Assembly: GCA_031288595.1 (NCBI GenBank)
Contig: JAITRB010000003.1
Location: forward strand, 87,225-119,224
Length of the DNA: 32,000 bases
Source of the DNA: Puniceicoccales bacterium
GTDB lineage: Bacteria; Verrucomicrobiota; Verrucomicrobiia; Opitutales; JAIRLG01
Direction of reading: 5' to 3'
Below are positions 1-29,257 of this stretch, one piece after another. Numbering within the stretch: the stretch's first letter is position 1; each line of letters starts with the position of its first letter. Position numbers and translations under genes: made by a program. The notes under the pieces were generated by a model, which was not told the DNA's origin, searched no databases, and saw only the letters and a list, made by a program, of their open reading frames with translations.

Positions 1-39
1 GCAAAGGCTTCTTTGCGAAAAAGCTCGAAAGACAGCGAA
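1..39. repeat. Partial copy (A) of the modular intergenic repeat, cut by the window start
   Basis: There is a hairpin gcaaag-gctt-ctttgc at 1-16. It probably extends: gaaaaagctc at 17-26 would pair with sequence left of the window. The right arm aaagacagcg at 28-37 matches the caaagacagc arm of copies D, F, G and H. Confidence 0.5.
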
Positions 40-119
40 GGAACTCCGCCTCACCTCGTGCCGCCCTTCCCTCCAGGACTCTGCTTGACTCTAGAGGGCC
101 CATCCGGTATGCTACGGAC

Positions 120-1712
120 GTGGATGGTAAGGGAAAGGCTTCCTTAAGAGTGGATGGGCAAGCTTATTCCATCGGGAAGGAACGCCAGGTGCTGGAACTC
201 TGCCTGGCCAACGGCATCGAGCTGCCCCACCTCTGCAACCAAAAGGGCCTCAGCGTCGAGACAAGCTGCGGGCTCTGCTTCATCGAGCAGAGGATACAGG
301 GACAGTGGTTACCCGTCCTTGCCTGCGTCCTCGTCCCACAGGACGGCATCGAAATTCGGACGGAATCGGAGAGCATCAGCACCCTACGCCGGCTCAGCGC
401 CATGAACCTACTCCGAATCCACAGCGTCCGCTGCGAAACCTGCTCAAAGCTCGGCAGCTGCTTCCTCCGAAAGATTTATCGACAGGTCCCCTGCGGTCTG
501 ACGCTCGAACTGGCTCCAGATGAGGAATTCGAAGCCCCCGTGGCCTTGGGACAGAATAGTCTCTGCATCGATCGGCGCAAATGCATCGGCTGTGGACTCT
601 GCGTGCGCTATGTCCAGGAAGTTCTGGGGGAGGACTGGCTGTCCATCGAAACCCTGCCGCACGGATTCCGCCGCATCGATGCCTATCCCGGCATCCACAT
701 TCCACCCGAGGAGAACAGCTCGCTCATGAAACTCTGTCCTGTACAGGCGCTGTCGGACAGGCGGCAGCGGTCCATCAGGGTTTACGACACCTATAAGATG
801 GATCATGGCCTGGGTCTACAATCGGAGGCTAGGAAGAATGACCTATGGCCGCAACGGCATCGGCTGGTCAAGGGATCCGCCAGACGTCCGGACATTCCAC
901 TGGAATTTCGGGAAGCAGAGGCACGAAGAGAACTGGTCGAGCGCCGCTTTCGGGAGGATTCCAGGCTACAGCAGCCCCTAATCCATGGGAAGCCGAGCGG
1001 GCTCACTTCAGCGCTCTCCCGTATTCTCGCTGCCCTGAGCAGCTCTCGGTGCCTCGGCTTCATTCTGTCCGATGACCTGTGCCTCGAGGATCTGCTCCTC
1101 GTCCATCGCTGGTGTTTGCAGCGCAAACCGGGAAAAATTTGGTTCGTCGCAGGCCCTGCTCCGGAGCGCCGCTACCCACCCACTCACACCATGGGCCATC
1201 GGGTCTTTTCCGATTTGGGTTTGGGGAATTTCGCTGACCAAAGGTCCGATTTCCTGGAAATCCACCAGGCGACAGAGGCACGGATCATCGATGCCATCTG
1301 TTTATTTGGCGACATCGTCTCCCAAGGACTGAATGGGAAAGCACTCTGTGCTGTTCCGAGCCTCTACATGGGCCCGAACTCCAATACGAGCAGTGAGCTC
1401 TGCGATTTCGTCCTGCCGACGGCCTTGCCCGATGAAAGGGACGGATGGACTCTGGGAGAGGACCAAAGGCTGCGCGCATTTCGGGCCGAGAAAAGGGGAG
1501 GAGCTGAGGTTTATCCAGAGTGGCAATGGATGGCGATGATGATCAATCTCTACGCCGACTACCCCCAAGGGCAGTGGAAATACATGAATCGAACGGCCCT
1601 GTGGAGTGAGCTGCAGATTTTCTATCCGGCTCTGGGAAAAATCACCGATGAGGCCCTGCCGAGCGAAGGCTTGGAACTCGAGTTGGGCGGCCGGAGAAAG
1701 CTAAAGAGCTAA
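120..1712 (+). CDS. NuoG-like Fe-S protein (NADH-quinone oxidoreductase subunit G family), short form of 530 aa
   Basis: The N-terminus has a 2Fe-2S ferredoxin-like pattern (HLCNQKGLSVETSCGLCFIE...ACV). It is followed by a His-Cys3 4Fe-4S pattern (HSVRCETCSKLGSC) and a CxxCxxC...CP pattern (CIGCGLCVRY...LCPVQAL), in the same order as NuoG/Nqo3. The start is GTG. No other nuo genes flank it. Confidence 0.6.
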   Translation: MDGKGKASLRVDGQAYSIGKERQVLELCLANGIELPHLCNQKGLSVETSCGLCFIEQRIQGQWLPVLACVLVPQDGIEIRTESESISTLRRLSAMNLLRIHSVRCETCSKLGSCFLRKIYRQVPCGLTLELAPDEEFEAPVALGQNSLCIDRRKCIGCGLCVRYVQEVLGEDWLSIETLPHGFRRIDAYPGIHIPPEENSSLMKLCPVQALSDRRQRSIRVYDTYKMDHGLGLQSEARKNDLWPQRHRLVKGSARRPDIPLEFREAEARRELVERRFREDSRLQQPLIHGKPSGLTSALSRILAALSSSRCLGFILSDDLCLEDLLLVHRWCLQRKPGKIWFVAGPAPERRYPPTHTMGHRVFSDLGLGNFADQRSDFLEIHQATEARIIDAICLFGDIVSQGLNGKALCAVPSLYMGPNSNTSSELCDFVLPTALPDERDGWTLGEDQRLRAFRAEKRGGAEVYPEWQWMAMMINLYADYPQGQWKYMNRTALWSELQIFYPALGKITDEALPSEGLELELGGRRKLKS

Positions 1713-1761
1713 AATCGCAGCAATCTTCAAGCCAGATATTCCCTTCGATGGGCGCTAGGGC

Positions 1762-1865
1762 TTTTGTCGCCTTTGGAGCCCAAGGGGCTCTCGGCCCGCT
1801 GCGCGGGCCGTTGGGGAGAAGCAGGGAAAAGCCTTTTCCTGCTTCTCTCCACAAAGGCGACAAAA
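1762..1865. repeat. Modular intergenic repeat, copy B (order short-GC-long)
   Basis: Arms ttttgtcgcctttg (1762-1775) and caaaggcgacaaaa (1852-1865) are complementary. Inside are hairpins gagccc-aag-gggctc (1776-1790), ggcccgc-tgc-gcgggcc (1793-1809) and gagaagcagggaaaag/cttttcctgcttctc (~1815-1850). Confidence 0.85.
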
Positions 1866-1951
1866 AAACACCAACTCCTCTCTTAAATTCCCGAAATCTT
1901 TCCCCGAACTTGGGCTTGCCAGGCCAGGATGAAAGGTTTAGGAAATAGGGA

Positions 1952-27697: not shown

Positions 27698-27722
27698 CGC
27701 TTCGGAATTTTATCCCATAGTG

Positions 27723-27754
27723 GAACAAAATTTCCCAAAACTTCCCACAGTCAA
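27723..27754 (-). promoter_or_regulatory. Candidate mraZ operator/promoter: TGGGA direct repeats with 10 bp periodicity next to a TTGACT box
   Basis: The minus strand reads TTGACT G TGGGA agttt TGGGA aattt TGTTC. The two TGGGA repeats are at 27743-27747 and 27733-27737, and a degenerate third is at 27723-27727. They lie 26-57 nt upstream of the mraZ ATG. No convincing -10 box was found. Confidence 0.4.
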
Positions 27755-27868
27755 TTTTTTTATGAAAAAAGAAGGGAAGCTTGTAGGCTACATCAGTATT
27801 TCCTAATAAAAACTATAGTTCTTCTCCACATCCTCGCGCTCAGGGAGGAGAAGGGGGAAATTTCGGTT

Positions 27869-29095
27869 TCAGCGAAAAGCTTTCCGCAGCCGATGAAGGC
27901 TTTTTTCCAGCACCTCCAGCTCCTCTATGCGGTTATAGGGAGCCAAAGAAATCCGCACGGTCGAGGGAACGCCCAGCGCGGCCATGAGTGGCTGGGCACA
28001 GTGGTGACCTGCTCGAACAGCGATGCCGTCCTCGTTGAGCCAGGTCGCGATGTCGTGGGGATGGATGCCTTCCATCGTGAAGGATAGAATACCGGTGTGA
28101 AATTCGGGCACAGGAGATAGTTGCAGCCCCGGAATACACTGCAGGCGCTCCCGGGCCTCGGAGAACAATCGCTTCTCATGCTCCATGGCCCCATCGCCGA
28201 GCTCTAGCCGTATGAAATCGATGGCGGCGGCGAAGCCGATGGCCCCTAGGATGTTGGGTGTGCCAGCCTCGAAACGCTCCGGAGGAGATCGGAAATCACT
28301 TCTTTCCGACGTGACCTGTTCGACCATCCCGCCGCCCAGTTGGTAGGGTTCCATATCCGGCAATAGCGAGGATTTCACGAAGAGAAGGCCAATTCCGGTC
28401 GGACCGAAGGCCTTGTGGGCGGACGTCGCAAAGGCATCGCAATCCCAGGCCTGCAGGTCGACCGGAGCGTGGAGCAGGCTCTGAGCCCCATCGACAATAA
28501 CCTTTGTCCCGTTGGCATGGGCAAGCCGGCAGATATGGGGAATGTCGCGCTCCTCCCCCAGCACATTGGTGATCTGGGCCAGGGCGAGGAGTTTTACCCT
28601 TGAATGCAGATGCTGTTCCAAAGCCTCGTGAAATGCCTCGCGCGAAGGGAGGAGATTCAAAATGCGCAGCGAGGCCCCCCGCTGCCGGCAGAGGCGTTGC
28701 CAGGGGAGGAAGTTGGAATGGTGCTCCTGAACCGTGATCAAGACCTCCTCGCCAGGACGGAGTTGACCCGGAGCCCAGCAACTGGCCAGGAGGTTGAGGC
28801 TCTCCGTCGTCCCTCGGGTGAAGATCAGCTCTTCGCTGCGGATGTGGAGGAAATCGGCCAAGGTCTGGCGTGCCTGATGATAAGCCACATCGCTCTGCTC
28901 GGCCAGGTAATGGATCCCCCGATGGACATTGGCATGGCGGTACATCCCATGCTCCAGCATGGCCGATAAGACGGACCGCGGCATTTGGGTGGTTGCGGCG
29001 TTGTCGAGGTAGATCAGCGGCTTTCCATGAGGGAGCCCCGTATCCAAAATCGGAAAATGCGCGCGAAATCGATCAAGCAGCGACCCAGCCATCAT
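27869..29095 (-). CDS. sufS: Cysteine desulfurase, SufS/CsdA type (class V aminotransferase)
   Basis: Motifs are IYLDNAATTQ, QEHHSNFLPWQ, the PLP-lysine region TSAHKAFGPTGIGLLF and the active-site Cys loop RAGHHCAQPLM. Confidence 0.85.
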   Translation of the reverse strand: MMAGSLLDRFRAHFPILDTGLPHGKPLIYLDNAATTQMPRSVLSAMLEHGMYRHANVHRGIHYLAEQSDVAYHQARQTLADFLHIRSEELIFTRGTTESLNLLASCWAPGQLRPGEEVLITVQEHHSNFLPWQRLCRQRGASLRILNLLPSREAFHEALEQHLHSRVKLLALAQITNVLGEERDIPHICRLAHANGTKVIVDGAQSLLHAPVDLQAWDCDAFATSAHKAFGPTGIGLLFVKSSLLPDMEPYQLGGGMVEQVTSERSDFRSPPERFEAGTPNILGAIGFAAAIDFIRLELGDGAMEHEKRLFSEARERLQCIPGLQLSPVPEFHTGILSFTMEGIHPHDIATWLNEDGIAVRAGHHCAQPLMAALGVPSTVRISLAPYNRIEELEVLEKSLHRLRKAFR

Positions 29096-29167
29096 GGAAA
29101 CAGGCTACTAAAGGCGGCAATTTACAAAATTCAACGGAAGAATTTTTGCTCAATGCGCATCTGCTGT

Positions 29168-29257
29168 CCTGGCTGTCTTTGGATCCCGAAGGGATCGGCC
29201 CGCTCCGCGGGCCGCAAGCAAGAAAGGAAAGCTTTCTCGCTTGCAAAGACAGCCAGG
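29168..29257. repeat. Modular intergenic repeat, copy H (order short-GC-long)
   Basis: Arms are cctggctgtctttg (29168-29181) and caaagacagccagg (29244-29257), which are perfectly complementary. Hairpins are gatccc-gaa-gggatc (29182-29196), ggcccgc-tcc-gcgggcc (29197-29213) and gcaagcaagaaag-gaaag-ctttctcgcttgc (29214-29244). Confidence 0.85.

Follow-up and report, generated by a model that had tools for sequence, protein, structure and literature searches.

What are the long, branched palindromes that lie between the genes of a Puniceicoccales bacterium (Verrucomicrobiota), and do they act as RNA, as an element maintained by the host or as mobile DNA? The question is raised by a 32,000-nt stretch of contig JAITRB010000003.1 (positions 87,225 to 119,224; assembly GCA_031288595.1), hereafter called the window, in which a first-pass annotation noticed eight copies (A to H) of an intergenic repeat with a cloverleaf-like fold and took the covariation of their arms as a sign of selection on structure. 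Our analysis confirms that the copies form a genuine family, densely spread between genes and conserved in its four-way fold. The repeat is non-autonomous mobile DNA, which has multiplied within genomes in either orientation and in any type of intergenic gap. In our judgement it probably resembles the repetitive extragenic palindromes (REPs) and the MITEs (miniature transposable elements with inverted repeats), acts as folded DNA and is native to Puniceicoccales of the termite gut.

The seven full copies (B–H) were recovered at the coordinates given in Table 1 together with their fold, in which, with RNA and DNA parameters alike, an outer stem of 12–16 bp surrounds a hairpin of 6–7 bp, a GC-rich hairpin (the clamp) and a long hairpin. 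Their minimum free energies (MFE) range from -57 to -83 kcal/mol for RNA and from -37 to -53 kcal/mol for DNA (z = -8.3 to -12.1), and 0 of 200 dinucleotide shuffles matched the DNA-fold energy of any of them. The 13 strongest inverted repeats of the window all fall within copies B–H, and an inverted-repeat search found terminal arms of 12–15 nt, 93–100% complementary, in 7/7. From a trimmed alignment of the seven copies we derived a covariance model, which, run on the window without filters, reported exactly B–H (64–78 bits) and no other window match at E ≤ 1. In this unbiased window a copy occurs about every 4 kb, and copies make up roughly 2% of the sequence. Copies D and E are inverted relative to the other five, so that their modules read long-clamp-short on the + strand. 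The clamp sequence GCCCGCNNNGCGGGC occurs 6 times at ≤1 mismatch, always inside copies, versus 0.29 occurrences expected in the window. Each copy had been credited with a clamp GGCCCGC-NNN-GCGGGCC, but this 7-bp form is present only in B, E and H; the clamp has 6 bp in D and G, carries one mismatch in F (where the short hairpin has 7 bp) and reads GCCCAT/ATGGGC in C. Copy C was found identically in a Logan contig (L001; L numbers denote the related contigs and loci that we analysed).

The eighth copy, A, could not be verified alone: its DNA fold is not significant (z = -0.85) and it has no match to the covariance model. It is plausibly a truncated real copy, because its right arm belongs to an arm variant (CTTTC/GAAAG) present in other copies and because the syntenic contig of a related genome, Pcl387_bin38 (hereafter bin38), has the start of a copy at the matching place (L051:1895).

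The family is so far confined to a small clade of termite-gut Puniceicoccales. The exact core pattern, scanned against one genome per species in 185,579 species, returned 59 stretches, all but three of them in three Puniceicoccales species represented by metagenome-assembled genomes (MAGs): bin38, Pcl387_bin136 and Ct408_bin121. The covariance model did not support the three remaining matches (Fodinicola, a palsa Verrucomicrobiales MAG, one uncultured MAG), and we rejected them as carriers; the core-pattern scan of JGI metagenomes gave nothing real (two chance-like matches). The Pcl387 sample comes from the gut of a lower termite. Contigs of bin38 are syntenic with the window at ~83–85% DNA identity and, on these sequence grounds, the window derives from a sister species of bin38; one Logan contig (run SRR14710895) matches it at 100% identity over 2,996 nt. 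The covariance model found 130 distinct copies (129 unique sequences, 81–127 nt long) in the window and ~341 kb of related contigs (~373 kb in all), and 128/130 fold by MFE into the four-way junction, with a mean RNA MFE of -70 kcal/mol. Beyond the seven of the window, 123 copies lie in the three termite-gut genomes; copy density in these related loci is biased, since the loci were selected for carrying copies. No Rfam family matched a copy at the gathering score, which the four tRNAs of the window pass, and at E ≤ 10 the copies gave only far-sub-threshold miRNA-hairpin noise, in agreement with the failure of the first-pass annotation to recognise a named family. The literature that we searched contained no description of the repeat.

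The unit consists of a terminal inverted repeat of 12–16 bp (..G-Y-Y-G-Y-CTTTG / CAAAG-R-C-R-R-C..), inside which lie two short hairpins of conserved sequence and one long hairpin of free sequence. The CTTT of the arm is invariant in 131–132 of 132 rows. In the 133-row alignment fitted to the covariance model, in which many cells reflect subfamily descent, 98.4% of cells are standard pairs, versus 77% with shuffled partners and 38–49% with partners slid by 1–3 columns. Outer arm pairs are 98.2% paired across copies, both sides have changed in 27/32 pairs and no shuffle attains any of the observed measures of covariation. The covariation of the short hairpin and the outer arms among window copies had been described correctly. 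Much of it separates subfamilies, so that between-copy covariation counts lineages and not independent events. In 109/128 copies purines predominate in the 5' arm of the long hairpin (mean 70%; for instance at 1812-1851, 4859-4900 and 12573-12609 of the window), a property that in a perfect hairpin holds on both strands. We rejected an origin of the long hairpin by copying of adjacent sequence, as 11-mers of the arms recur in the ±1 kb flanks of only 5/128 copies, versus 3 in the control.

The long hairpins group into subfamilies with shared extended ends, one of ~20 copies in Ct408_bin121 and Pcl387_bin136, one of ~10 in bin38 and several small ones. A relative in the same genome that is at least 90% identical over the full length exists for 32/88 copies in bin38 and for 15/22 in Ct408. 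Thirty-two copies lie within 300 nt of another copy, with orientations mixed, and several are nested, either in the loop of a long hairpin (L006:135-228; L033:4565-4658 and its near-duplicate in L021; L046:2613-2733; L059:1792-1879) or in that of a short hairpin (L040:4028-4116 and its near-duplicate in L018). Every resolved nested case sits in a hairpin loop, and as loops make up only ~1/10 of the element the preference looks real, with the caveats of survivorship and of an incomplete survey of decayed fragments. The element has repeatedly inserted into the single-stranded hairpin loops of older copies, without target-site duplication: no duplication flanks the members of three subfamilies or the nested copies, as the first-pass annotation had reported for the window. 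The suggestion that non-nested copies too are seated in the loops of larger stems was discarded, because their arms extend merely 1–3 bp past the model. Joined flanks, blasted against the window and the related loci, returned orthologous filled sites and one nested case, but no clean empty site. Where bin38 has the counterpart of the copy G site, the surviving right end of a G-like copy adjoins a copy from another subfamily. The near-identical relatives and the nesting demonstrate ongoing copying, and the argument that covariation speaks for selection on structure 'rather than recent copy-paste' is not supported in that form.

One copy has entered a protein gene. The mutL gene of bin38 (L031:577-2622, JAITKE010000008.1) contains a 96-nt copy in frame (L031:1207-1302), and the alignment of its product to solved MutL N-terminal structures is interrupted between query residues 200 and 249, a span to which only 8 residues of the structure correspond. 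The copy appears to add about 32–40 residues between the ATPase and transducer domains. Seven copy-crossing open reading frames (ORFs) were scanned against Pfam, and mutL is the sole real in-frame case; four read as over-extensions of the start codon, judging from the starts of their Pfam domains, and two have no Pfam match.

A fold of this kind could in principle function as a cis-acting structured RNA that stabilises the upstream mRNA, directs RNase processing or terminates transcription, with selection keeping its pairs. The RNA fold is indeed very stable, covariation is strong, the majority of window copies are flanked by co-directional genes, with which they would be co-transcribed, and REPs are known to affect mRNA stability (PMC3733652). 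Against this, orientation relative to transcription in tandem gaps is balanced (31 same, 28 opposite), and 98 copies are distributed over 59 tandem, 23 divergent and 16 convergent gaps, roughly as expected of random intergenic placement (gene contexts being crude longest-ORF calls with copies treated as ORF barriers). A G·U pair is tolerated in RNA and its complement A·C is not; selection at the RNA level should therefore enrich G·U on the transcribed strand. Among 5,335 arm positions there are 161 mismatches (G·T 65, A·C 42, transversion-type 54), and in the sense of the transcript G·U and A·C are nearly equal (24 vs 20), with G·U in ~1.2% of all paired cells.

The loops point in the same direction. 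Triloops close 126/128 short hairpins and 122/128 clamps, on a C:G pair in at least 97%, and 75% and 79% of them, respectively, are GNA or TNC, versus ~12% expected from loop composition. Both senses are about equally frequent (51:44 and 42:54), and the counts of loops correlate with those of their reverse complements (rho 0.72 and 0.80). The sequence d(C-GNA-G) forms a classic, very stable DNA mini-hairpin (PMC3201870, PMC13037366), and here the C-GNA-G mini-hairpin falls on either strand at random. The pairing rules are of DNA type and not of RNA type. The flanks are T-rich and A-poor on the 5' side (2–8% A at the six nearest positions) and the mirror image of this on the 3' side, which is the reverse of an intrinsic (Rho-independent) terminator; together with the lack of orientation bias and the 23/98 copies between divergent genes, this eliminated the terminator as a candidate. 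The absence of orientation bias, the lack of a G·U excess over A·C and the DNA-type triloops in both senses disfavour the RNA option, as do the lack of an Rfam match and the copy in frame inside mutL, and we regard a structured RNA as improbable. As a separate observation, no other hairpin of terminator strength was found between the genes of the window, and since all its strong inverted repeats belong to repeat copies, classical intrinsic terminators seem to be scarce in it.

Independent evidence on covariation comes from the comparison of orthologous sites. Copies B, C, D, E and H each have a counterpart at the same place in bin38 (Table 1), G has the remnant mentioned above, and for F the bin38 sequence analysed contains no syntenic stretch. 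Between the members of these pairs, 30/30 short-hairpin pairs and 32/33 clamp pairs are identical and the outer arms are near-identical, whereas the flanking intergenic DNA barely aligns. The long hairpins have diverged to different extents: C, E and H show a few compensated changes, in D about 1/3 of positions have changed and in B no similarity is recognisable, with almost perfect pairing throughout. Pair changes counted on the alignable long hairpins amount to 47 pairs unchanged, 7 changed on both sides to Watson-Crick pairs and 3 changed on one side, and the clamp adds one double change; by our arithmetic, independent mutation at ~0.15 changes per site predicts ~0.4 compensated doubles and ~14 singles. 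Each ortholog pair retains its own subfamily variant, so that homogenisation among paralogs is not the cause. We read the core as constrained in sequence in place, and the long arm as constrained only to pair; since orthologous copies retain the core while their flanks diverge, some constraint on the copies is real.

The same data speak for a DNA architectural element maintained by the host, in the manner of bacterial interspersed mosaic elements (BIMEs), whose junction would bind a nucleoid, topoisomerase or repair protein; this would be compatible with a mobile origin. It would account for arms, short hairpins and clamps that are essentially identical at ~84% coding identity and not homogenised with paralogs, for the near-invariance of CTTT, for the matching of 5/7 window copies in bin38 (with a remnant of a sixth) and for the high and regular density. 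It has to contend with the fact that no binding protein is known, that recent amplification, nesting, decayed fragments and insertion into a gene resemble selfish spread, and that occurrence in a very narrow clade means that there is no general requirement for the element. We hold such a role to be rather unlikely.

According to the explanation that we prefer, that of mobile folded DNA, the element would act as folded single-stranded DNA or as an extruded cruciform, forming a four-way junction in which the two small arms would be hyperstable C-GNA-G mini-hairpins. The recognition site of a trans-acting enzyme could be formed by the conserved arms together with the short hairpin and the clamp; a single-strand-specific transposase of the HUH/Y1 type is our favoured candidate for this enzyme, by analogy with REP/RAYT (REP-associated tyrosine transposase) and with the insertion sequences (IS) of the IS200/IS605 family (PMC3333891, PMC2817692); this is the weakest step of the proposal. 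The long hairpin would need only to be self-complementary, and its perfect pairing, double changes and flipped loops would arise mainly by intrastrand template switching during replication, one arm templating the other (mechanism described in PMC8794818). Loops are found inverted between copies, and within one subfamily the centre of the long hairpin is inverted (L014:2664, L028:211, L038:2657). As template switching can maintain pairing mechanically, selection on structure is not required to explain perfect pairing, nor is pair-by-pair selection on an RNA needed; the earlier leaning towards selection on structure is only partly right. The retention of the core sequence at orthologous sites suggests that the copies may also be under some constraint in place, possibly as binding sites of host proteins.

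The search for a mobilising enzyme was negative. As in the first-pass annotation, no transposase was seen in the window: Pfam identified no transposase family among 30 scanned ORFs, which encode housekeeping proteins (transaldolase, truB, FAD synthetase, UvrD-like helicase, guanylate kinase, Sua5, SecG, psd, two DJ-1 genes, rsmH, mraZ, dapB) or have no Pfam match. A tblastn search with E. coli RayT in the window and ~370 kb of loci, a fraction of each genome, gave nothing better than E = 1.5. Arm motifs outside scored copies, where followed up, belong to degenerate, nested or cut copies, and none bounds a longer element with the same ends in ~400 kb of these incomplete genomes. These results also bear on a conventional MITE, i.e. 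an internally deleted IS moved by a DDE transposase that acts on double-stranded terminal repeats, with incidental internal hairpins. The 12–16 bp terminal inverted repeats, the conserved inner part, the size of 81–127 nt, the subfamilies and the intergenic location would all be typical of it, but neither a longer element nor a transposase turned up in ~400 kb, target-site duplications are absent from subfamily alignments and nested copies, the internal hairpins are conserved more strictly than filler would be and insertions favour hairpin loops. We consider it very improbable, slightly more so than the RNA option.

Several points weigh against the mobile-DNA explanation as we have formulated it. 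Neither the scanned window ORFs nor the ~400 kb sample, which covers a fraction of each genome, yielded a transposase of any kind, and a true terminal inverted repeat is present, unlike in elements of the IS200/IS605 type. The placement of the insertion site and of the exact ends relies on subfamily alignments and nested copies only. The mismatch-symmetry test relies on few informative mismatches (44 in oriented tandem contexts), and the gene calls in the loci are crude (longest ORF). The purine-rich 5' arm of the long hairpin is not explained by a mobile-DNA model, and the conservation of the core at orthologous sites is not expected of decaying selfish copies and hints at a role at the level of the host. 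We speculate that the family could instead be a distinct class of single-strand or cruciform mobile DNA, whose substrate would be a four-way DNA junction around two hyperstable C-GNA-G mini-hairpins, that targets hairpin loops specifically and without duplications, is moved by an enzyme unrelated to known REP or IS machinery or by host replication and repair alone, and whose core has been co-opted for the binding of a host protein. Although we hold this to be rather unlikely, about on a par with the BIME-like alternative, it would, if true, explain the near-perfect conservation of the orthologous core alongside a freely evolving, self-templated third arm.

Table 1. Copies of the repeat in the window, parts of copy B, and orthologous copies in bin38 (bits, covariance-model score; z, DNA fold)
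Feature	Location	Strand	Description
Copy A	1..39	+	probable 3' end: part of long hairpin and right arm GAAAGACAGCGAA, cut by the window start
Copy B	1762..1865	+	canonical orientation; gap between Fer2_4-domain gene and transaldolase; 66.7 bits, z = -10.1
B left outer arm TTTTGTCGCCTTTG	1762..1775	+	pairs with 1852-1865; inverted repeat I6, 14 nt, 100% complementary
B short hairpin GAGCCC-AAG-GGGCTC	1776..1790	+	from MFE folds
B GC clamp hairpin CGGCCCGC-TGC-GCGGGCCG	1792..1810	+	TNC triloop, GNA on the opposite strand
B long variable hairpin	1812..1851	+	inverted repeat I3; purine-rich 5' arm
B right outer arm CAAAGGCGACAAAA	1852..1865	+	inverted repeat I6
Copy C	2960..3042	+	canonical; gap between transaldolase and DHH-family gene; clamp GCCCAT-GTC-ATGGGC; 65.1 bits, z = -11.5
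Copy D	4847..4943	-	reverse; gap between truB and FAD synthetase; 73.5 bits (- strand), z = -12.1
Copy E	12557..12657	-	reverse; 72 nt upstream of tRNA-Ser(tga); 78.4 bits (- strand), z = -10.2
Copy F	18290..18398	+	canonical; between minus-strand amine oxidase-like and HhH-GPD genes; 64 bits, z = -10.7
Copy G	23171..23272	+	canonical; gap between phosphatidylserine decarboxylase and DJ-1/PfpI; 76.5 bits, z = -12.0
Copy H	29168..29257	+	canonical; between minus-strand class-V aminotransferase and dapB genes; 78.1 bits, z = -8.3
B ortholog	L051:4-108		core identical, long hairpin unrelated
C ortholog	L007:6808-6888		compensatory changes in clamp and long hairpin
D ortholog	L007:4872-4967		long hairpin with 4 double and 2 single changes
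E ortholog	L050:4118-4211		
H ortholog	L036:1245-1332		

Further observations concern the surroundings of the copies. The longest ORFs for the FAD synthetase (4838-5971) and the amine-oxidase-like gene (16754-18340) start inside or cross copies D and F, respectively. Their Pfam domains start at residues 73 and 68; the true gene starts very likely lie downstream of the copies, and both genes may be made too long by automatic annotation. The window contains four tRNA genes in 5 kb on alternating strands (Glu-ctc 9585-9659, Ser-tga 12730-12819, Met-cat 13796-13870, Ser-cga 14115-14204). By tRNA genes, bin38 has extra segments (L050:2700-3120 and L050:7180-7900) that are missing at window positions 13620-13800 and 9560-9800. 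Each of them carries a copy of the same CTTTC-arm subfamily, with similar flanks and in opposite orientation, ~4.7 kb apart, and the motif CTCAAGCCCTAAAAGGGAAAAATTTA is present at both; they may represent a larger segment that was duplicated or is mobile. As these two copies, present in bin38 only, sit in indels of 240–500 bp, they yield no element boundaries. The tandem DJ-1/PfpI paralogs (23315-23893 and 24062-24661) share a 50-nt stretch that is 72% identical (23838-23887 and 24606-24655), and the gap between them contains in bin38 a nested pair of repeat copies (L033:4452-4788) that is absent from the window.

The main subfamily of Ct408_bin121, with some members in Pcl387_bin136 (L003, L014, L017, L022, L028, L038, L043), has conserved sequence outside the junction, namely a left-hand stretch of ~30 nt (..CACCGTCTCC..GGCGGGT) and a right-hand ACCGAA.., and in one copy the left motif is found inverted on the right. 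As this sequence lies outside the four-way junction, the mobile unit in this subfamily is longer than the fold. The only two copies identical in sequence (L016:1478-1566 and L055:6239-6327) are on different bin38 contigs with partly similar flanks, and could stem from a transposition that took place very recently or from the duplication of a small segment. A number of MAG contigs or loci (L041, L025, L023, L007, L051) end within a copy; short-read assembly of these genomes is probably broken by the repeats, which may explain why the assemblies fall into small contigs.

The family adds a very abundant, undescribed repeat (~2% of the window) to the poorly known, uncultured Verrucomicrobiota of the termite gut. 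With hundreds of copies, a constrained core next to a free but always paired arm, loops that flip between strands and compensatory changes in orthologous copies, it offers an unusually clean natural data set on the origin and upkeep of perfect DNA palindromes. It makes testable the ideas that template switching, and not selection on RNA, generates compensatory substitutions and that small mobile DNA uses hairpin loops as targets of insertion. It is also a warning that strong covariation and a tRNA-like branched fold alone do not indicate a functional RNA.

How does the repeat compare with known systems? A REP is a single imperfect hairpin of 20–40 nt with a GTAG or CGTC tag, whereas the unit described here is a four-helix junction of 81–127 nt with a terminal inverted repeat of its own, and the consensus of its covariance model (ucGCuGcCUUUGG...GCAAAGgCaGCga) contains neither tag. 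Likewise, no RAYT was found in the DNA sampled from these partial genomes. The likeness to the REP/BIME/REPIN group lies in high-copy, intergenic, GC-rich palindromes that occur in both orientations, are clustered and lack target-site duplications. REP elements act as targets for further insertions (PMC1525189) and are occasionally found inside repair genes (PMC3733652), which the mutL copy recalls, and the related Opitutus terrae is rich in GTAG REPs (PMC3733652).

The structured MITEs (Correia/NEMIS, ERIC, RUP, BOX, Nezha) resemble the repeat in that they are ~100 nt long and modular, end in inverted repeats, have spread between genes, fall into subfamilies and are co-transcribed with the genes beside them, but they carry target-site duplications and usually have a recognisable parent IS, neither of which is seen here. 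To our knowledge, a conserved pair of triloop mini-hairpins combined with a third hairpin of free sequence is not a feature of any of these families. The palindromic elements of Rickettsia (RPE), likened by description and not by sequence, are also palindromic repeats of ~100 nt that can insert in frame into protein genes, cf. the mutL copy; in contrast to them, the copies here are almost all intergenic and lack a CGTC tag.

The attC sites of integrons share with the repeat a folded single-strand structure with short conserved inverted cores and a variable centre, and a position between co-directional genes. By definition an attC site is a single bulged hairpin with R''/L''-L'/R' cores, found at the 3' end of a mobile gene cassette beside an integron integrase. 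We ruled out that the copies are attC sites: their neighbours are housekeeping genes, no integrase was found among the scanned window ORFs, the fold is four-way and not a single bulged hairpin, and copies occur in both orientations. Elements of the IS200/IS605 family agree with the repeat in the absence of duplications and the presence of hairpins, which are subterminal in that family; they depend on DNA hairpins and act on single-stranded DNA, which would fit the preference of the repeat for hairpin loops (PMC3333891). They differ from it in that their ends are not inverted repeats of each other and that they insert 3' of a fixed tetranucleotide, whereas the copies analysed here have a clear terminal inverted repeat and only a bias towards a T-rich left and an A-rich right flank. 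Altogether, the repeat is best classed as an undescribed family of the REP/MITE kind of small mobile palindromic DNA, one that fails the defining tests of both REPs and MITEs.

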